Source: Pseudomonas phage EL. Taken from it: a DNA stretch of 64,000 bases. The position numbers were made by a program, and so were the translations under genes. The stretch is from sequence record AJ697969.1, one strand, 5' to 3'. Position 1 is the stretch's first letter; each line of letters opens with the position of its first letter. Positions 9,070-41,044 of this stretch are shown in pieces. Below the pieces are notes generated by a model. The model was not told where the DNA came from. It made no database searches and saw only the letters and a program-made list of their open reading frames with translations.

Positions 9070-10794
9070 ATGTTTGACAACAAACCCAGCACGAGTGCTG
9101 AGCGAGCGGTGGCGGGTACTGATTTGGCTCCTGAGAATGACGGCCAACGGTACAGGATCCATTATCTGCCTGACATCTATGATCCGGACAAGCATCCGCC
9201 GGAGGACATTGTTAAGTACGTGGTTCCCCGGGAACGGGAATTGGTGATCGATGTACCCAATAAACAGTTCCTGGAGGTGATTCATGTGGATTACCAGGGG
9301 AAGACCTTGAAGTCTACCTTGGTTCCGTGGGAACCTCGGACCAGTGAGGACGGTACCACAACTGAACAAGACTGGATCTTCGGTCTACGAGGAGGTCCTC
9401 TGTTGGGTGAAGCCTTGCTGAGTGTGGACTACAGCCAACGACCTAACGTAGCGCGTGTTGACAGCACCATCATGCGACCCGGCGCAGCGTACGCTAAACT
9501 CTACCTCGGTAACGACGCCAGTGACAACGGTCGGATCATCAGTGCCCAGTACGACAAGTCGGCGAATATGATCAGCAACAAGGTACCTACCAAGTTGGCT
9601 GAGATCGTAGACCGTACGAACCTGGAGATTATGACCACGGGTCCTTTCAGTGTCACGGAGAACGAGGAGGCCCTGAAAGACGGTACGCGTTGTACGTTGG
9701 TGTTCTATGACGAGGGGGGTAACTTCATTCCCCCGGTTCAACCTGTAATGGTCCAACATTGTGCATACATGCGGGATCACCAGATTGGTACCAAGTATGT
9801 CACGGAGATTGAACTGCTCACACCGTGGTTTACCAATACAGTCAATGCGGAGAAGATTATCATTCCGGTGAACGTATTGGTAACGGCTATTGAGTTCAGG
9901 GCGGTGATTCATTACTCGGATGGCAGTACCAGTGCGCCCATGCCGGTGAACGGTGAACGGTTCAACCTGTATGGGTTGAATGAATGGCGCCCCACCTGGC
10001 CGGGTCAAGAGGGTGAGATCGTTCTGACCCTTAAACTGGCAGCGAATGAACAGCATTACATTGCCAAACCCGGGAGTCCCGATCACATCAGTCGAACCTA
10101 TTCGGTAGAAGCCGGTCCTGTTAAAGGCGCGTACTCGCCGAAGATCTACACCTTCCCGCAATGGGATCCGAGTATTTCGGGGTATCGACTCCAACATTGG
10201 CTGTTGGATCTGGATCGGAAAACGGCCATTGATGTGACCGCTCAAGTGAAGTTCAATGAGAAGAGTGAAGTCTGGCGGCCTTCTGCCTACGGGGTTGCTC
10301 AATCGTTGATCTTTAACTTGAACCTGAGGGATGTATCGAGTCAGTACGAGAGTGTGATCTTCCGGCAGTACACCACCATTGTGTTGTATAAAGACATCAA
10401 TGGGCCGGGTAAACGCTTTGACGTGTCCTTCTCGCAGAATAAACCGTCGTACGAAGCGAAGTTCATTGTCGCTAAGAACGCCGGAGCTGCTACCACGGTC
10501 AATGTGGCCAACGGGTACGGTAATCAAACGGATTGGCTGAAAGCGTTGTATTGGGGGGTCGAACCTAGCTTCAATCGGTTCGATGAAGAGAAAGCTCCTT
10601 TACCCACTCATTTCTACCTGGTTCATGAAGACGGGCGTTCCTGGCGGTATCCGATCTCGGATTGGAATAAGAACAACGCCATCAACATTGAACTTCAGAA
10701 GGGTAAGACCTGGTTCCTTCGTTGGGTGGAACGCCAAACGTCTGGTGATGAGAAGCAACTGGCCGTTACTGGTGTAACGGTTGAATTTCCTTAA
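9070..10794 (+). CDS. hypothetical protein (574 aa)
   Basis: ORF with GGGGAT RBS-like sequence upstream. Confidence 0.6.
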   Translation: MFDNKPSTSAERAVAGTDLAPENDGQRYRIHYLPDIYDPDKHPPEDIVKYVVPRERELVIDVPNKQFLEVIHVDYQGKTLKSTLVPWEPRTSEDGTTTEQDWIFGLRGGPLLGEALLSVDYSQRPNVARVDSTIMRPGAAYAKLYLGNDASDNGRIISAQYDKSANMISNKVPTKLAEIVDRTNLEIMTTGPFSVTENEEALKDGTRCTLVFYDEGGNFIPPVQPVMVQHCAYMRDHQIGTKYVTEIELLTPWFTNTVNAEKIIIPVNVLVTAIEFRAVIHYSDGSTSAPMPVNGERFNLYGLNEWRPTWPGQEGEIVLTLKLAANEQHYIAKPGSPDHISRTYSVEAGPVKGAYSPKIYTFPQWDPSISGYRLQHWLLDLDRKTAIDVTAQVKFNEKSEVWRPSAYGVAQSLIFNLNLRDVSSQYESVIFRQYTTIVLYKDINGPGKRFDVSFSQNKPSYEAKFIVAKNAGAATTVNVANGYGNQTDWLKALYWGVEPSFNRFDEEKAPLPTHFYLVHEDGRSWRYPISDWNKNNAINIELQKGKTWFLRWVERQTSGDEKQLAVTGVTVEFP

Positions 10795-10806
10795 GGAGGA
10801 AACAAA

Positions 10807-10992
10807 ATGACCAGTACGGTTAACGTAACCGCTCATTGTACCGAAGATAAGGAAGTAGTGGTTCGGGTTCAGACGCCTGAAGATATCTCGCAAGAGGTTA
10901 TTCTTCAGAACGGTGAGAAGACGGAAGTGGTGGTGTTCGGCGCTAAGCACGTCATCATTCACGAACGGACTCGGTTGGAACCCGAAGGTTAA
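10807..10992 (+). CDS. small hypothetical protein (61 aa)
   Basis: perfect SD AAGGAGG 8 nt upstream of ATG. Confidence 0.45.
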   Translation: MTSTVNVTAHCTEDKEVVVRVQTPEDISQEVILQNGEKTEVVVFGAKHVIIHERTRLEPEG

Positions 10993-11017
10993 CGGCGGTT
11001 GATCCTATAGTTAAAGA

Positions 11018-11065
11018 GTAACCCTGGGCGGCGCCCAGGGTTACTTGATTGTTATAGGGTTTTCG
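11018..11065 (+). terminator. hairpin GTAACCCTGGGCGC/GCGCCCAGGGTTAC followed by T-rich tract
   Basis: 14-bp GC-rich palindrome then TTGATTGTTATAGGGTTTTCG. Confidence 0.4.
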
Positions 11066-11077
11066 TGGAGTTGATGT

Positions 11078-14000
11078 ATGACAGACGAACAAGACACATC
11101 CCTTTCCTATGCTAAATGGTTGGTTAAGTACCTGAGATGCAACAACCTGCCCAAAGAACTGATCGATGATAAACGCCTCCGTATTGATTGGGAGGCTCGA
11201 ACAGACGATGAAACCCTTTTAGCTCACTTCAATGAAGACAGCTTAAGTGGTATTAAGACTGTTCGTTTTCTCAAGGACTTTTTCAACTACCAAGCGGGTT
11301 ATGATCGGGAGACCCGGAATACCAGTTTCCTCAGAACCACCGAAGTGTTCAGGCAACAGGGGATCAATAACTTTTACTTCATCCTCCAATTGAACAATCC
11401 CCTGTTGAAAGGGGTGGATCCCTTTGATCCTAACCTCACTCCTGAGCAACAGGTGTGGGTCCTGGAGGAGTGTCGGAGTAACTTTTGGTACTTCCTACGG
11501 GAAGTTTGCCGGTTAAAGCCGAATCAGCCCTTCTTAGCGAACCGGGGGAATATCAGCTTTATTTGGTCGTATTTGAATCACATTACCACCTACATGATCA
11601 TGCCGCGGCAACAGGGTAAGCAGCAGCGGAACAGTGCTAAGGTTCGTATTGTGCCTAAGGATACCCTGAAGACTATTACCCCTCAGGATACTTGGAAACG
11701 GATTGAACACCTACGGGTGGGGGATCAAGTCCTGGACCGTTCCGGGAAGCCGTGTCAGGTGATTGGCATTCATCCCCAGGGTAAACGCCGGTTGTATCGC
11801 GTCATTACCAGTGACGGACGAGCCACGGATGTAGGGACTGAACATCTGTGGACCTTGAAGGATTATTCCAACTGCCTCAATGGACGTGCACTCTGGAATG
11901 ACTATTCGACCGTTGATGTCATTAACCTGTTGAAGAAGAAGGTTAAACTTCAATTGCCGTTACCGGCTCCGGTACCCGGGAGTGAACAGGACCTACCTAT
12001 TGACCCGTACGTTCTCGGGTTGATCTATTGCGGACAAGATCAAGACGGTAAGGTTATTATCCCCACGCGTACGGATGCGGTTAAACAGTACGTAGTTGAT
12101 CATCTCCCTCGGGGGGTAACAGTTATTCAGGGAGTGGCTAACAGTTGCTTAGAACGGACTGATAACCAACCTTATTTATTCAACAGGGAACACGGTTTAC
12201 CGGATCAATACCTAGAAGCCCCTTTAAACGCCCGGAGAGACCTCTTACAGGCGTTTTTAGACGTTAGGGGTAAGGTTGGTAGGGGTAAGGTCTTTATAGC
12301 CTTAAATCGCGTCCTAGGAGGTCAACTGGCGTATTTAGCCCGTAGTCTAGGTGGAACCGGTAAAGTCACCAAGAACGGAGTAGAGATTACCCTACCGGAA
12401 GAGGTGCCTCCGTTCAAGTTCAGGGAAGAGAATGTCGTCTTTGATAATCGGTTGCTGATCGAGCGGGTGACTTTCGTAGGGGATGACGATTGTACCTGTA
12501 TTGAAGTCGATAACAGTGAACAGTTGTATTTGACCGATGACTTCATTGTGACCCACAACACGGTATCGGTTCAGGTGATTGACTTCTGGTTAACGTACAT
12601 CATGGGCCGGGGGTATACGAGCCACTTGATTACCTTGAAGTCGGATAACCGAGCTCAGTTCATTGCGGCTATTAAGCAGATACGGAGTTCCATTCCCTCG
12701 TATTTGATTAACTCGACCTACAAGGACAAGGATGCTGGTACCAGTCTGACCTACAAGGCCTTTGGGGAAGATAACGTTAATACGCTGTACATTAACGTCC
12801 CTCAGATCAGTCAGGATGCAGCAGGGGATCTCGGTCGGGGGTTACGGGTAGGGACTACCAACTACGATGAGTCCGGGTATATTCGGTTCATCGACACCAT
12901 CATTGACGGGTGTTCCCCGTCCTCGCTAACGGAAATGGCGTTGTGCAGAGAGCAGGGGTTGCCGTATGGGATTACGCACATTACGACCCCCAATACCACG
13001 CTCCATCCCAGCGGGGAGTTTATGTTCAATAAACTCATGAGTGCAACGGAGTGGCGGGAGAAGTTCTTTGATTGCTTCAGTGAGAGTCACTTGAGGCAGA
13101 TGTTACTCAGGGCTTCCCCTACGAAGACAACCTCTCCGTCAGTCTCCATGGTGTACAATTACCTTCAACTGGGTAAGGACAAAGCCTGGGTGCGGGAAAC
13201 CATTGACCTGCTAGGATTGAGTTTGGCGAAAGCCAAGATCGACTTATTGCTCATGTGGGTGGAAGATGGGGAGAATCGGTTGTTTGACGATGTGACCCGG
13301 GAAGCCATTAACAACATGAAGCGGGACGTGGTGTGGAGTAAGGAGTATCGGGACTGTAACCTGTACGTGGACTTCTTTGTGACCCAACAGGAATTGTTGG
13401 AGATGGCAAAGAAGGAGTACAATGACCATTTCCTGATTGGTGTGGATACGTCCTCAGCCATTAACAAGGATGCCTGCACCATTGTGATTCGCAGTATGAA
13501 GACGGGTAAGGTCATTGGGGTGGGACGATATCCCTTAACCTTCTTGGATGATGTCACAGCCATTGTTGTGGATTTGCTGGACGTGATTCAGAACAGCACC
13601 TTGATCATAGAGCGTAACTACGCACATCACATGATCGACAGTCTGTTGATTATGCTGCCGGCTAAGGGTATGGATCCCTTTAAACGGGTCTTTAACCAAA
13701 TCTACCAAGACACCGTCAATAACGCCAAGGAGTTTGAGGAAGTCCAGAACACCAAATTTGCTTACCGGAATAAAGCGTTCTACCTGAAGTATAAACAATA
13801 CTTCGGGTTCGTGACGACCAAGACCACTCGGGACGTCCTGTACGGCCTCATCCAAGAGGCGGTTGGGAATACCGGGTACGGCCTCTGTTATGCGAAGCTC
13901 GCGGATGAATTGATCAACCTGAAACTCAAGGGGGATCGAATCGACCACGATGCGAAGCAGCACGATGACTTGGTCATTGCGTGGCTACTGAGCTACTGGT

Positions 14001-17008: not shown

Positions 17009-17009
17009 T

Positions 17010-17658
17010 TAAGGTGACCTCGTCTAACAAACCTTAACGGGTTTATATAAACCCGTTAACTAGGATTAGGGAATCATAACATCTTCCAGTAATTCATTAT
17101 TCGGTTTCCATTATATGTTCCACTTACCCAATTCTCATTTTGGAGGAGGGGGTAAGATTCTTTAGGACTGAGCGACATGAGCCTACGGCGAGTGGAGTGA
17201 AGGAGTAAAGAATCTTGGGGGAGGAGGCCCTACCGAAGGTAGAGTCCAGAGAAGAGAAAAGAGAAAATCCGAAGGAAAAACCTATTACTCCGTAATAGCT
17301 TTTGCTCTTTATATAAGCCCCGGAGGGGCTTATAAGGCAATAAAATTTAACTTTAGTATTTATTATTATTATAGGAAATTGCTTTTTTATTTAAAAAAGG
17401 AAAAATGAAGAGGAAATGAAAATGGGAAAAATACCTTTTAAATATTCCCTAAATTTCATTTGCTATTAAAGAAGTACCCCTTTCAAAGTCAATTACCCCG
17501 ACCGGCATTCCCGAACAGGGAAGCCGGCGTATAGGGTTTATAATGCAATACTGAAATAGGGTTAATGGATTTCAGTTCTACATTATCATTGGGTAATGAA
17601 AGAATACAGTTATTCGTATTGATATGTTTTGTTAAACCCAGAAGAGGAAGAGTGTGTA
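17010..17658. promoter_or_regulatory. 650-bp divergent intergenic regulatory region with palindromes, a long-range inverted repeat, purine mirror repeats and polypurine tracts
   Basis: no convincing ORF; perfect palindromes at 17034..17059, 17283..17299 and 17311..17337; inverted repeat AAGATTCTTTA (17154..17164) / TAAAGAATCTT (17206..17216) flanked by mirror repeats GGAGGAGGGGG / GGGGGAGGAGG; polypurine runs 17248..17282 and 17393..17433. Confidence 0.4.
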
Positions 17659-18207
17659 ATGACAACGATTGCTTATCGTGACGGTGTAATGGCGGCGGAT
17701 ACTCGTGTGGTCAACGGGGCCGATATGATCAACCTCGGAGAGCAACGTAAGATCCACGAACCGGGGGAAGGAGAGTACTGGAGTGTCAATGGTGACCGTA
17801 TTATCTGTTTTGGTTTGTCGGGGAGTCTGTCGGATCTGTTGGCCTTTAAAGAACTGTTGAGTGAAGGGATTACCTTTAAGACCAAAGCACCTGACCACCT
17901 CGTTGGGGACTCGAATATGCTCTGCGTGGGTGAACAGGGTAATGTTTGGCTGGTTTCAGCATTTAAACAACGAGACGGGAGTATGGTGTTTACGGTGTCA
18001 TGCGTACAACCCCCGTTTGCAATTGGATCGGGGGGTATTTACGCCAGTTCGGTGATGGCGGTGGGTAAAAGTGCGGTGGATGCAGTTAAAGTGGCGTGTA
18101 AGTTGGATATCTTTTCTGGCGGTCGTATTGATACCTGGGAACTCCCCCCTATTCCAGAAACCCCCAGTAAGCGCCCTGAACCGGCCGCCGATAAGACGGC
18201 AAAATAA
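17659..18207 (+). CDS. HslV / proteasome beta-subunit-like Ntn-hydrolase peptidase
   Basis: MTTIAYRDGVMAADTRV (Thr directly after initiator Met, as in HslV TTIVSVRRNG...AGDGQ); FAIGSGGIYA matches the HslV AIGSGGPYA motif; GLSGSLSD ~ GFAGGTAD; RBS GAGGAAG upstream. Confidence 0.7.
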   Translation: MTTIAYRDGVMAADTRVVNGADMINLGEQRKIHEPGEGEYWSVNGDRIICFGLSGSLSDLLAFKELLSEGITFKTKAPDHLVGDSNMLCVGEQGNVWLVSAFKQRDGSMVFTVSCVQPPFAIGSGGIYASSVMAVGKSAVDAVKVACKLDIFSGGRIDTWELPPIPETPSKRPEPAADKTAK

Positions 18208-18399
18208 TCCCTAGGGGGTAAGACCCTCAGAATGTAGGCGATGGAAACTAGAGTGTGTAGGTATTTTATGCCGATGACCTGCATTCACTCCATCGCCGGT
18301 CCTGGTGGGAAGGTTAGGAGTGTTAGACACCCACCACCCCTCAACTGCCCAAGCCTATTCTGTCAGGCTTGAGAGGGTTGCCTACAAAACGCTCCGCCC

Positions 18400-18460
18400 C
18401 TCCAGCTCTATGTCACTATGATGTAGAGCTGGAGGTCTTACTTCTTTTGTTTTTTATTTA
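18400..18460 (+). terminator. rho-independent terminator (stem CCTCCAGCTCTA/TAGAGCTGGAGG plus T-rich tract)
   Basis: 12-bp stem, 12-nt loop, then TCTTACTTCTTTTGTTTTTTATTT. Confidence 0.55.
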
Positions 18461-18560
18461 CCCAGGAGGGAATATCTTATACCGTTAAAGTGACCTGTTT
18501 CCACGCCATGGTTCTCTAGGTCACTGTAAGGGTACAACGTTATTGATCCTCTTGGATGCG

Positions 18561-18617
18561 CTAACGGGTGGTGTTATGGTCATATCGGCGGTTGCCCACC
18601 CGTTAGTCTTTTTTTTG
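18561..18617 (+). terminator. rho-independent terminator (stem CTAACGGGTGG/CCACCCGTTAG plus T8 run)
   Basis: 11-bp stem then TCTTTTTTTTG; lies inside the spurious N-terminal extension of the 18543 ORF. Confidence 0.65.
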
Positions 18618-18713
18618 ATTACGCTAGATAATTTGAAACCTAAATTATTAGCAGGCTATTGGAGAATAGTCCTTTTTAATGACTTCCCTGTAAACCAAAG
18701 AGAGCGATTCGAT

Positions 18714-25847: not shown

Positions 25848-26125
25848 GTGAGTATTTTTCCAGTGATGAACTATTATATAGCACACCACGGTCTCCCGGT
25901 TCGTCCGGGAGTCGTTGGAGTGCAATTTCGAAAATGGTATGAGTTTGAACAAGTACCTATAGCATTTCAGCCTAAAAAGCCGGAATGTGACCAAGTGCTA
26001 GAATTTTTCAAACCCATATTACCAGTGTGAATCGCCACAAGGATATTTGTGTGTGTAGGCAAACACTACGCGATTCCGCTATAGCGAAGCAAACCCTTTC
26101 TTAAGAAAACGATGGAGTTTACCCC

Positions 26126-35980: not shown

Positions 35981-36025
35981 GGGTAGGAGGGGTTGCCCCT
36001 CCTACCCGGTCTATTCGTTTGGTTA
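35981..36025 (+). terminator. rho-independent terminator (GGGTAGGAGGGG/CCCCTCCTACCC plus T-rich run)
   Basis: 12-bp stem, 3-nt loop, then GGTCTATTCGTTTGGTT. Confidence 0.55.
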
Positions 36026-36085
36026 GAATATTTTAAACCTACATTATCTTCCCGTAATCCTGGACTATTCTGTTTGGAGTGAACC

Positions 36086-40630: not shown

Positions 40631-41044
40631 GTATTTTTACGCTTGGGTCGTATTACTACGTGCAACGGCCTGGGTCAAATGGGCCTCGTCAATTATCTTG
40701 TAACTTTGCATGCCCGCACAATCCATAAAGGGATCTTCAATCCCATTCAGATAGGCGGTGACCCACAGCATATGGTTTTCAACCCCTTGAACCCTCAGGA
40801 ACCGATAGAAGTCATACCGATAGGCATACAGTTGTGCGTGAGAGACGATTGGAATCTCCTGGGTTTGACGGAGGAGTATTTCCCGTTCGGACCGCACCAA
40901 GACTTTGAACCGTTCAGTAAAGAAGAAATCACGTCCTTCACTGAAGTTAACAATAGACAGTGGCATGGAGAAGATCCTTATCGATGCAGCTAACCATTTT
41001 TGAACCTATATTATTTCTGTGACCCGACATAAGGAATTATCCCA

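Follow-up and report, generated by a model that had tools for sequence, protein, structure and literature searches.

The proteasome homologues closest to the gene studied here form the PPH clade, which was described by Fuchs et al. in 2021 (PMC8665760) and is routinely annotated in phages. PPH proteins combine a proteasome-beta fold with Thr1 or Ser1, Asp17, Lys33, a glycine loop and an oxyanion-region glycine that is conserved. They lack a propeptide, helix H2 and the C-terminal elements S12/H5, are ~140 aa long, and come from tailed phages and prophages of Proteobacteria, where their genes are unlinked to any AAA+ gene. HslV (ClpQ) is a dodecamer built from two hexameric rings and has H2, and its gene normally adjoins hslU. 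The 20S beta subunits (beta5, beta5i) have a propeptide that they remove by autocatalysis, an alpha-type partner, H2 and H5, and Anbu forms coiled coils with a long C-terminal helix H5. BPH (PDB 5ovs, 5ovu), the nearest characterised standalone relative, is encoded by a chromosomal, stress-linked bacterial gene, assembles as a tetradecameric double ring, has H2 and a long acidic pore loop, and is inert in standard peptidase assays (PMC5777263), so that intact catalytic residues are no guarantee of measurable activity. Connectase, an archaeal protein ligase (PDB 6zw0), carries a two-helix lid beside its active site, its specificity-determining insertion being located at S3/S4 (PMC8665760).

We analyzed a stretch of 64,000 nucleotides of Pseudomonas phage EL (AJ697969.1; the whole stretch is called the window below), in which one gene encodes a protein of the PPH clade, a compact group of N-terminal-nucleophile threonine peptidases within the proteasome-beta/HslV family. 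The assignment was made by the described features. Like PPH, the EL peptidase has the proteasome-beta fold in its predicted model, the catalytic set and the glycine loop; it lacks the propeptide, H2 and S12/H5, its gene is from a tailed phage of Proteobacteria, and no AAA+ gene is linked to it. Unlike PPH, it is 182 aa long, a length that we take as typical rather than defining. It shares the fold of HslV at ~24% identity, but it has no H2, its H3-H4 connection is shorter, the pocket and pore residues of HslV are not conserved in it, and the EL genome is without hslU. It differs from BPH in having neither H2 nor the acidic pore loop and in being a phage gene, from the 20S beta subunits in lacking the propeptide, the alpha-type partner, H2 and H5 and in a core that is ~20-40 residues shorter, and from Anbu in lacking the long H5. 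RPC identity is unlikely, since the extra C-terminal domain is missing, and AAH identity is unlikely as well, because H2 loss has been described for PPH and RPC only (PMC8665760).

The EL peptidase is not new: RefSeq names it 'peptidase HslV family [Pseudomonas phage EL]'. With that name and the family in print, the gene call itself adds nothing new, yet it marks a real gap. The searchable literature yielded no measurements of activity, oligomerisation, substrates or timing of expression for the EL peptidase or any PPH. Phage EL is tractable for such questions, having a culturable host, a single-copy gene, no unfoldase of its own and a gene that is predicted to be transcriptionally isolated, and its case bears on whether viral proteasome homologues act alone or borrow a host unfoldase. 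Our overall explanation, which we hold to be reasonably probable, is that the EL protein is an Ntn threonine enzyme, probably ring-forming, that works independently of an unfoldase.

Gene, catalytic residues and family matches

The gene and the parts of it that concern the enzyme are as follows.

17659..18207, + strand: CDS of the PPH-type proteasome-like threonine peptidase, 182 aa (phage EL YP_418048.1; UniProt Q2Z166)
17644..17652, + strand: Shine-Dalgarno-like GAGGAAGAG, 7-15 nt 5' of the ATG, by direct reading of the sequence
17662..17664, + strand: codon of Thr2, predicted N-terminal nucleophile after removal of Met1; at least 90% conserved in 119 homologues
17698..17700, + strand: codon of Asp14, equivalent to proteasome Asp17; invariant in 119 homologues, aligned to AADSR of beta5
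17749..17751, + strand: codon of Lys31, equivalent to proteasome Lys33; invariant in 119 homologues, aligned to Lys33 of beta5 and HslV
17755..17799, + strand: S3/S4 insertion, residues 33-47, HEPGEGEYWSVNGDR (alignment A2)
18025..18033, + strand: codons of Gly123-Ser124-Gly125, the GSG loop of the proteasome/HslV active site, aligned to the GSG of beta5 and HslV
18142..18204, + strand: Pro-rich basic C-terminal tail LPPIPETPSKRPEPAADKTAK, with the motif PxPExPSxRP common to the nearest relatives

The first-pass annotation had read a threonine-peptidase ORF beginning MTTIAYRDG... at this place, and both the ORF and its N-terminus proved correct. ATG 17659 is the true start, since the Shine-Dalgarno-like core GAGGA lies at 17644-17648 and the aligned homologues start with M-T-T there; on the same grounds, TTG 17629 was rejected as a start. 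A few homologue ORF calls have apparent N-terminal extensions. In the alignment of homologues, the nucleophile follows directly after Met1, leaving no propeptide, and Thr2 is aligned to Thr1 of proteasome beta5 and HslV.

Across the 119 homologues, D14, K31, G123 and G125 were invariant, and M1, T2, T3 and S124 were at least 90% conserved, which includes the position, Thr2, whose conservation had been set beforehand as one of the refutation tests for the first reading. The AIGSGG.YA motif of HslV that had been noticed earlier was recovered as FAIGSGGIYA (G123-S124-G125), aligned with IAIGSGGPYA of E. coli HslV; the numbering of the E. coli sequence used agrees with the residues cited in PMC6429459. 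G52 and G55 lie within a conserved GxxG stretch after strand S4, and either may be the equivalent of Gly47. All 20 jumbo-phage paralogues kept the active-site residues, with one Lys-to-Arg change and either Thr or Ser at the nucleophile position. Among Elvirus isolates, the gene had a dN/dS of 0.12-0.29, and none of the 20 substitutions fell on catalytic residues; as judged from these substitution patterns, the gene is under purifying selection and functional.

In database searches, the EL peptidase matched PHROG_1040 at an E value of 5.9e-39, and its Pfam Proteasome score was below threshold (E 0.25), PF00227 being matched by 53 of the 119 homologues. A single-sequence search of PDB sequences returned nothing relevant; the family profile alone succeeded, reaching proteasome beta5 at 3e-12 and HslV at 1e-10. 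The NCBIfam HslV models (TIGR03692 and PRK05456) did not match the EL peptidase, whose sole NCBIfam match was arc_protsome_B (E 0.17), and among the 119 relatives the archaeal proteasome-beta model was matched by 46 and the HslV models by 26-27, weakly. PADLOC gave no defence-system match for the protein. Of the earlier description as HslV/proteasome-beta-like, membership of the proteasome-beta family thus stands, whereas 'HslV' is a nominal label, as there is no NCBIfam HslV match and no H2.

Predicted fold, insertion and tail

An AF2 monomer model of the EL peptidase (pLDDT 95.5, pTM 0.89) has a proteasome-beta-like, Ntn-hydrolase core, and the fold check proposed for the first-pass annotation thereby came out in its favor. 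DSSP assigned a single helix (57-69) between S4 and S5 of the model, followed by coil at 70-84 and then a strand. With only this one helix, H2 is absent, and alignment A2 has a gap opposite HslV H2. Residues 70-84 (GITFKTKAPDHLVGD) are not acidic. The last regular element is the strand 157-161, after which the chain continues as a coil tail, so that the C-terminal S12/H5 is absent as well. Helices H3 and H4, which make the ring-ring contacts in proteasomes (PMC8665760), are present and uninterrupted.

The excess over a PPH of ~140 aa consists of the 15-residue hairpin insertion at S3/S4 and the 21-residue Pro-rich tail, and the core without them (33-47 and 162-182) is ~146 aa. Both extra parts are common to a jumbo-phage and P22-like subgroup of PPH, and the insertion is missing in minimal ~140-aa PPH. 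In the model, the insertion appears as a strand at 41-43 running into the strand 46-55, i.e., a short beta-hairpin, and its residues E39, W41 and G45 are invariant in alignment A3, which covers the jumbo-phage subgroup. The last 22 residues are predicted as coil with a pLDDT of ~75-90. In the nearest relatives, the tail reads PPKPEVPSVRP (P0002) and PDKPETPSKRP (P0003) in alignment A2, and similar Pro-rich tails are found in the paralogues of L009, L010 and L017.

The insertion is at the same S3/S4 site beside the active site as that of connectase, which raises the possibility of a sequence-specific processing enzyme or transpeptidase, in which the insertion would be a substrate-selecting lid on a monomer or a small oligomer. 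The exact coincidence with the specificity site of connectase and the invariance of E39, W41 and G45 within the subgroup would fit such an enzyme, and Fuchs et al. expected that the new homologues would include some with unusual quaternary structures (PMC8665760). According to the same authors, some insertions may block ring assembly (PMC8665760), and the S3/S4 insertion might prevent that of the EL peptidase. However, the EL insertion is a short beta-hairpin where connectase has two helices, many PPH members have no insertion at all, and the ring-contact helices H3 and H4 are intact. We consider a processing enzyme of this kind quite unlikely.

The shared fold also bears on a proposal in which the EL protein would co-assemble or compete with host HslV or HslU and poison quality control, its own catalysis being secondary. 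Besides the fold in common with host HslV, the gene's own upstream region and terminators (see below) are compatible with this, as are the two to three tandem paralogues of relatives, which show subunit diversification. On the other hand, the whole catalytic set is strictly conserved across the family, which indicates that catalysis matters, and an identity of ~24% to HslV together with the missing interface helix makes mixed rings unlikely. An interfering subunit is therefore very improbable to us.

Search for an unfoldase partner and mode of action

The first-pass annotation had seen no HslU-like partner nearby. We confirmed this for the window and extended it to the rest of the genome by way of phage MIZ-Pa99, which is 99.3% identical. 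In the window, a strict Walker A motif was absent from every ORF of at least 100 aa. A Walker A scan picked up no genes other than SbcC-like, thymidylate kinase and DnaB-like ones, together with two near-matches of the GKQ type. In tblastn against the window and the remaining ~150 kb of MIZ-Pa99, neither E. coli HslU, E. coli ClpX nor phage RAY gp116 had a homologue (best E 0.26-1.4); the same HslU query matched RAY gp116 at 3e-32 as a positive control. The whole-genome annotation of MIZ-Pa99 lists no AAA+ partner for the peptidase either. Erwinia phage RAY gp116 was also considered as a homologue of the peptidase and rejected, its record being a 569-aa HslU-like ATPase. A nuclear location of the EL peptidase, which was based on the nucleus-localised RAY gp116 ('HslVU family', Prichard et al. 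2023), was dropped accordingly.

A host unfoldase could nevertheless be hijacked: HslV-like hexameric rings of the phage protein would dock Pseudomonas HslU, either as a hybrid ATP-dependent protease or to divert HslU, and it is the host's HslU that would be needed, as EL has no HslU-like gene. Proteobacteria generally carry HslUV, HslU is present in every known host, and the hosts of PPH-bearing phages were all Proteobacteria among the matches listed. A strong resemblance to HslV is seen in the N-terminus MTTIA and in the AIGSGGxYA motif. Moreover, at least six enterobacterial nucleus-forming phages carry both PPH and an HslU-like gene, e.g., ChrisDB, SPAsTU, MET_P1_082_240 and pEa_SNUABM_4, from Erwinia and Salmonella, which makes a partnership within the family plausible.

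However, the residues that HslV uses for docking are not conserved. The HslU-tail pocket of HslV is formed by F54, F57, A79/K80 and Q114 (PMC6429459), which in alignment A2 correspond to L61, K64, nothing (H2 being missing) and C115 in EL, an approximate mapping from a MAFFT alignment at 24% identity, and the basic pore residues R86, R89 and K90 of HslV (PMC5777263) have no EL counterpart there. The relatives match the archaeal proteasome-beta model more often than the HslV models. Most of the sampled PPH-phage lineages are without an HslU-like gene among the matches listed, the Pakpunavirus, P22-like, Rhizobium, Aeromonas and Caulobacter PPH phages being absent from these matches. Where a phage has both, the PPH and HslU-like genes are ~100 kb apart, and the C-terminus of the RAY HslU-like protein is extended and different, in place of the ...SRFIL docking tail. 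The argument from the pocket residues was likewise made for BPH (PMC5777263). We thus regard hijack of host HslU as unlikely.

A standalone, BPH-like mode is better supported and more likely than pairing with host HslU, given the lack of an AAA+ partner in the EL genome, the lack of H2 and the non-conservation of the HslU-tail residues. The unfoldase-independent enzyme that we favor would work as follows. Host methionine aminopeptidase would remove Met1, and the free amino group and the hydroxyl of Thr2 would then act on peptide bonds as a nucleophile-base pair, the way they do in HslV and in the beta subunits of the 20S proteasome. By analogy with the family, the subunits would probably form rings around the active sites, and the peptidase would probably act without a dedicated unfoldase. 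Substrate choice or assembly would likely be determined by the S3/S4 hairpin (E39, W41, G45), which is beside the active site, and by the Pro-rich tail. The most likely role in the infection is to cleave a restricted range of proteins or peptides, from the host or the phage.

A bolder version, to which we give a rather low probability, is that the EL lineage has a partner-less, specialised peptidase whose hairpin and PxPExPSxRP tail select host or phage targets, and that the tandem paralogues of relatives are hetero-oligomeric 'mini-proteasomes'. The targets might then include, e.g., defence or quality-control factors during the nucleus-based infection. If true, a virus would here encode a proteasome that needs no unfoldase and has substrate-recognition elements of its own.

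Phage distribution, neighborhood and flanking DNA

Proteasome-like peptidases had been called rare in phages at first, which was overstated. PPH relatives were found in 184 of 50,697 phage records, from more than 20 host genera, and in 276 IMG/VR contigs (profile from the six-sequence alignment A3), and BFVD gave 32 fold relatives. EL itself has one PPH copy, and no further proteasome-like gene turned up there.

Across 80 PPH loci, there was no conserved neighbour gene, lineage-specific synteny aside. In small phages, the homologues lie near packaging or head genes: phiM5 has the order terminase, PPH, portal; Proteus phage RS51pmB has PPH directly 5' of the terminase; and in Caulobacter CcrSC PPH adjoins the terminase. 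The EL gene for the large terminase is also upstream of the peptidase gene, its end being 3.3 kb away. These contexts are what speaks for a morphogenetic protease acting on the prohead or virion proteins. Other contexts differ, however, with PPH near nucleotide/RNA metabolism genes in DSS3P8 and near tRNA genes in SPN3US. A separate head maturation protease is annotated in MIZ-Pa99 (203397-204260), and SPN3US relies on gp245 as its prohead protease (PMC10052503). The EL gene adjoins phuZ in a block of replication-compartment genes and is the first in the phuZ-to-DNA polymerase block. A morphogenetic function is extremely unlikely in our view, and the gene is accessory and non-structural.

The DNA on both sides of the gene has the following features.

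17009..17658, no strand: divergent intergenic region of 650 bp, between leftward genes (phrog_3179, phrog_2921) and the peptidase gene
17034-17059 and 17308-17335: two palindromes with a TTTATATAA core, within the intergenic region
17578..17587, + strand: tentative promoter core CTACATTATC, 72 nt 5' of the peptidase ATG
18301..18398, + strand: conserved non-coding element 3' of the peptidase gene, conserved at the DNA level
18399..18455, + strand: strong intrinsic terminator, a 17-bp stem (18399-18435) and then a T-rich tract
18587..18616, + strand: weaker second terminator-like hairpin, a stem (18587-18604) and then T8
18625..18648, + strand: promoter-like motif TAGATAATTTGAAACCTAAATTAT 5' of phuZ, at the start of the next transcription unit

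The position of the gene between an upstream regulatory region and two terminators, as first proposed, was borne out by the 650-bp intergenic region and by the strong (18399-18435) and weaker (18587-18604) hairpins. The intergenic region contains an AT-rich island at 17323-17477, the largest of only three in the window, and at the equivalent site eight metagenomic relatives have an intergenic region of 370-575 bp that likewise has an AT-rich minimum. Folding of the palindrome at 17308-17335 gave z values of -3.6 and -4.2. The site at 17578..17587 is identical to the core of a promoter-like site 5' of ORF 36086, but the full 24-nt promoter-like motif does not match there, and a sigma-70 promoter scan of the peptidase-gene flanks was at chance level (3 found versus 3.4 expected). 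The 24-nt motif itself has four matches in the window versus 0.02 expected, all of them 5' of + strand genes (phuZ, chimallin, ORF 36086 and ORF 41045), and the one upstream of phuZ is kept in relatives.

Together with this promoter-like motif of phuZ, the terminators at 18399-18435 and 18587-18604 indicate, at the level of sequence, that the peptidase gene is a separate transcription unit. The strong stem has a dG of -29.3 kcal/mol (z -6.5), and its counterpart in relatives keeps the hairpin and T-tract structurally, but not the sequence. Relatives also have a hairpin and T-run at the position equivalent to 18587..18616, which is the most variable stretch in the Elvirus isolates compared. A hairpin directly 3' of the peptidase stop was not above shuffled sequence (z -0.25).

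The DNA of the element at 18301..18398 is conserved in relatives whose flanking proteins share just 35-54% identity, and among Elvirus isolates it has 0-1 substitutions per 114 nt versus 1.3-8% in the peptidase CDS. Compensatory changes were seen in its helices, which were assigned by hand. It may possibly be a structured RNA, as the 3' UTR of the peptidase mRNA or as a small RNA in its own right. Covariance model R1 of the element matched EL, L010, L012, L016 and L017 at 74-102 bits; it found no further copies in the EL-type genome and no match in the more distant relatives L009, L011, L014 and L015. The element belongs to no Rfam family, and neither ARAGORN nor Rfam (up to E 10) detected a tRNA or known RNA family in the peptidase flanks. 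The pattern GAGGGTTGCCTAMAA hit 93 DNA stretches over viral contigs (80 loci listed), among which only the four contigs known before were recognised and, at the loci listed, no new relatives of the element were identified.

The 506-bp gap at 18208-18713 was also considered as a decayed second PPH copy, which was rejected: with tblastn and an HMM of the paralogues, the gap scored no higher than shuffled sequence (at best -2.0 bits versus a shuffle median of -2.1). Relatives keep a similar gap 3' of their last PPH copy, and the metagenomic relatives carry two to three tandem PPH paralogues at the equivalent locus.

Identity, fold and class of the peptidase

The window covers the left end of the Pseudomonas phage EL genome. 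The gene under study is already annotated and belongs to a published, uncharacterised family:

17659-18207, + strand: peptidase ORF, 182 aa

Its translation has 100% the same residues as YP_418048.1, CAG27109.1 and UniProt Q2Z166 (source contig, 211,215 bp), the first of which carries the RefSeq title "peptidase HslV family [Pseudomonas phage EL]". The region is 96.9-99.3% identical to eight Elvirus genomes, in four of which the gene bears the name "HslV family peptidase", and the EL-type genome also encodes chimallin, PhuZ and an EL-type GroEL chaperonin. The ATG at 17659 is the preferred putative start codon over an upstream TTG, because it is preceded by a GAGGA box at a distance of 10 nt and because the aligned homologues start with M-T-T there.

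In single-sequence searches, the EL protein reached Pfam Proteasome at an E value of only 0.25, had no HslV match in NCBIfam and retrieved nothing relevant among PDB sequences; its match to PHROG_1040, a family specific to phages and titled "peptidase HslV family", reached 5.9e-39. A database search gave 365 homologues, mostly of 140-170 aa, and the alignment of 119 of them was used for conservation counts and a profile. D14, K31, G123, G125 and A129 were invariant in the 119, and M1, T2, T3 and S124 were at least 90% conserved. The profile matched the proteasome beta5 subunit (E = 3e-12) and HslV (E = 1e-10), pairing Thr2, AaDsr, Lys31 and AIGSG with Thr1, AADSR, Lys33 and SVGSG of beta5. Individually, 53 of the 119 homologues matched Pfam PF00227, 46 the NCBIfam archaeal beta-subunit model and 26-27 its HslV models. 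AlphaFold2 run on the same alignment gave a pLDDT of 95.5 and a pTM of 0.89. The first-pass annotation had recognised an HslV-like Ntn-hydrolase with Thr2 as its nucleophile; with the fold and the conservation of Thr2 both checked, that observation is real and the proteasome/HslV-like assignment correct.

The proteasome-like peptidases of phages (PPH) form a clade of about 140 residues placed in group I together with HslV and BPH, carried by tailed phages and by prophage regions of Proteobacteria; they are without a propeptide and the C-terminal S12/H5, and helix H2 is missing uniquely in PPH and RPC (Fuchs et al. 2021, PMC8665760). The EL model has one helix (57-69) followed by coil (70-84) at the HslV H2 position, H3 at 126-134, H4 at 139-149, and a final strand (157-161) before a coil tail, a predicted architecture exactly the same as that described. 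Compared with a minimal PPH, the EL protein has in addition a 15-residue S3/S4 insertion (residues 33-47), in which E39, W41 and G45 are invariant across the jumbo-phage subgroup, and a Pro-rich tail, PPIPETPSKRPEP, the motif of which is also found in the nearest relatives. Its assignment to PPH rests on these described features rather than on clustering with the references of Fuchs et al.

By tblastn, the family was found in 184 of 50,697 phage records, including jumbo phages (Elvirus, SPN3US-like and Erwinia phages), Pakpunavirus (PAK_P3, KPP10), phiCbK-like Caulobacter phages, Rhizobium, Aeromonas and Vibrio phages, roseophages, and 40-50-kb Klebsiella, Proteus and Escherichia phages. A pattern-limited scan confirmed PPH in 276 IMG/VR contigs, and in BFVD the fold is shared by 32 representatives of viral clusters (E ≤ 1e-3). 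The earlier view that such peptidases are rare in phages is thus overstated: although uncommon per genome, they are widespread and the family is already named.

Unfoldase partner or standalone action

No HslU-like partner had been noticed near the gene, and this held. No window ORF of at least 100 aa contains a strict Walker A motif, and in a relaxed Walker A scan the only genes returned were of SbcC-like, thymidylate kinase and DnaB-like type, together with two near-matches of GKQ type in window ORFs. The search for such a gene elsewhere, made in the 99.3%-identical genome of phage MIZ-Pa99, was likewise negative: the annotation of the remainder of that genome lists no AAA+, Clp, Lon or HslU gene, and tblastn of HslU, ClpX and RAY HslU-like queries against it and the window gave E values of 0.26 or worse. 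The HslU and ClpX queries were the E. coli proteins; as a positive control, the same HslU query retrieves RAY gp116 at 3e-32.

RAY gp116 was itself considered as a peptidase homologue and ruled out, its record being a 569-aa HslU-like ATPase. It localises to the phage nucleus (Prichard et al.). Encoded at L090:1353-3062, it shows 46% identity to the E. coli HslU N-domain and has a long, different C-terminus in place of the HslV-docking ...SRFIL tail. The matches listed place HslU-like genes in nucleus-forming phages of Erwinia and Salmonella, RAY-like, SPN3US-like and others, so that many enterobacterial phages of this kind encode such an AAA+ protein. At least six of these genomes (ChrisDB, Huxley, pEa_SNUABM_4, pEa_SNUABM_43, SPAsTU and MET_P1_082_240) also encode PPH, about 100 kb apart. 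No Elvirus was among the matches listed, nor did a local tblastn recover such a gene from the EL-type genome; Elvirus phages carry PPH only, in contrast to the at least six genomes with both.

The first-pass annotation had left the choice between a host unfoldase and standalone action. HslV receives the HslU C-terminus through F54, F57, A79/K80 and Q114 (PMC6429459), and its pore is lined by basic R86, R89 and K90 (PMC5777263). In an alignment of the EL protein and its relatives with E. coli HslV, F54, F57 and Q114 are replaced by L61, K64 and C115 in EL, and deletions stand opposite A79/K80 (the missing H2) and opposite R86, R89 and K90. From the same residue pattern, the structure authors argued that BPH became independent of HslU; they found neither a partner nor in vitro activity for it (PMC5777263). 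Standalone action appears more likely than hijacking of host HslU, because the pocket and pore residues are changed or deleted as in the BPH argument; this reading draws on a low-identity alignment and on a helix absent in the monomer model. The interest that remains lies in the role of a viral proteasome homologue that lacks an unfoldase, and EL would be a good system for asking about it.

Gene neighbourhood, tandem copies and selection

Across 80 IMG/VR loci, we found no family-wide conserved neighbour gene and no AAA+ neighbour. About 25 of these loci are P22/lambda-like elements of about 40 kb, and in those inspected PPH lies just upstream of or beside the genes for terminase and portal; in RS51pmB, it directly follows the lysis genes. 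Contigs of 126-234 kb that encode the proteins closest to that of EL (34-40% identity) keep the EL synteny, with phrog_2921 and phrog_3179 leftward and PPH, phuZ, seven small genes and DNA polymerase rightward. EL has a single PPH copy; its nearest non-Elvirus relatives (IMG/VR jumbo-phage loci L009-L017, around 10001-12300 in each) have two or three tandem diverged paralogues. Every tandem copy retains the glycine loop and the catalytic set (Thr or Ser, Asp, and Lys, which is Arg in one copy), and the arrangement suggests possible hetero-oligomers or diversified specificities.

Within a 2.7-kb region compared among Elvirus isolates, divergence is highest in the peptidase gene (1.3-8% nucleotide differences). 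Its dN/dS is 0.12-0.29, compared with 0-0.06 for phuZ, and no catalytic residue is among the 20 amino-acid changes. The gene is under purifying selection, with weaker constraint than on its neighbour. In phage GXNNE2, the gene has a dS of 0.22 and 20 amino-acid changes, and the adjacent phuZ a dS of 0.047 and none; since the peptidase gene is so much more diverged, a recombination patch limited to it is suggested.

Candidate control regions and conserved non-coding elements

The following features lie upstream of the gene:

17009-17658: divergent intergenic region, 650 bp
17034-17059 and 17308-17335: two palindromes with a TTTATATAA core, flanking the AT-rich island
17140-17290: purine-rich stretch, flanking the AT-rich island
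17323-17477: AT-rich island (~20% GC) with GGAAA(A)AT-type repeats, the largest of only three in 64 kb
17578-17587: 10-nt core CTACATTATC of the 24-nt promoter-like motif listed below, 72 nt before the ATG

The region may serve as a divergent promoter or have a part in replication. Eight metagenomic jumbo-phage relatives have a 370-575-bp intergenic region with an AT-rich minimum at the same position.

Downstream features and promoter-like motifs are as follows:

18301-18398 (to 18455 with the strong terminator after it), + strand: conserved non-coding element
18399-18435, + strand: strong terminator (z = -6.5) downstream of the peptidase gene
18587-18604, + strand: weaker terminator hairpin with T8, then the phuZ promoter-like motif
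18625-18648, + strand: TAGAWWWTTTNNAACCYANATTAY, upstream of phuZ
25999-26022, + strand: TAGAWWWTTTNNAACCYANATTAY, upstream of chimallin
36024-36047, + strand: TAGAWWWTTTNNAACCYANATTAY, upstream of ORF 36086
40991-41014, + strand: TAGAWWWTTTNNAACCYANATTAY, upstream of ORF 41045

The 24-nt motif TAGAWWWTTTNNAACCYANATTAY occurs four times in the window against 0.02 expected. Each copy precedes a + strand gene by 31-104 nt, and the motif probably represents a class of phage promoter; ahead of the peptidase gene there is the core alone. This core is similar to TATATTAC, the early-promoter motif of phiKZ. The proposal that the gene is a separately controlled unit is reasonable in view of the terminators at 18399-18435 and 18587-18604, but the hairpin directly after the stop codon was not significant.

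The gap between the last PPH gene and phuZ, 440-590 nt in EL and five relatives, aligns as DNA with 53% mean column identity; the flanking proteins are just 35-54% identical. Within it, 18301-18398 is nearly invariant in Elvirus, where isolates differ by 0-1 substitutions per 114 nt. RNAalifold gave a closing helix with compensatory changes and then the terminator. Helices Pa, P1, P2 and P3, assigned by hand and by eye, are fully paired in all sequences examined with differing base pairs, Pa and P1 together making a would-be pseudoknot; the structure evidence comes from only 4-6 independent sequences. A covariance model scored EL, L010, L012, L016 and L017 at 74-102 bits and matched nothing else over about 485 kb. 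The segment has no Rfam family, and its single-sequence folding energies were no better than those of shuffles (z = -0.4 to -1.2). The segment could act as a small RNA or as a conserved element of a 3′ UTR, a lead rather than a finding. In SPN3US (L005:1775-1847), a tRNA-Trp directly follows the PPH homologue, and then another tRNA-like gene; RNA genes therefore also lie downstream of PPH in a distant relative.

A second conserved non-coding block (18456-18616, + strand; GGAATATCTTATACCG ... CATGGTTCTC ... GGTCAC) ends in the weaker hairpin and T8; the relatives, too, have a hairpin with a T-run there. The MIZ-Pa99 record (PV472050.1) annotates several "hypothetical proteins" of 30-58 aa within intergenic regions corresponding to those around the peptidase gene. 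Its taxonomy line reads Straboviridae (Pantevenvirales), yet the phage is Elvirus-like and encodes chimallin and PhuZ, so that this placement looks like a mis-assignment.
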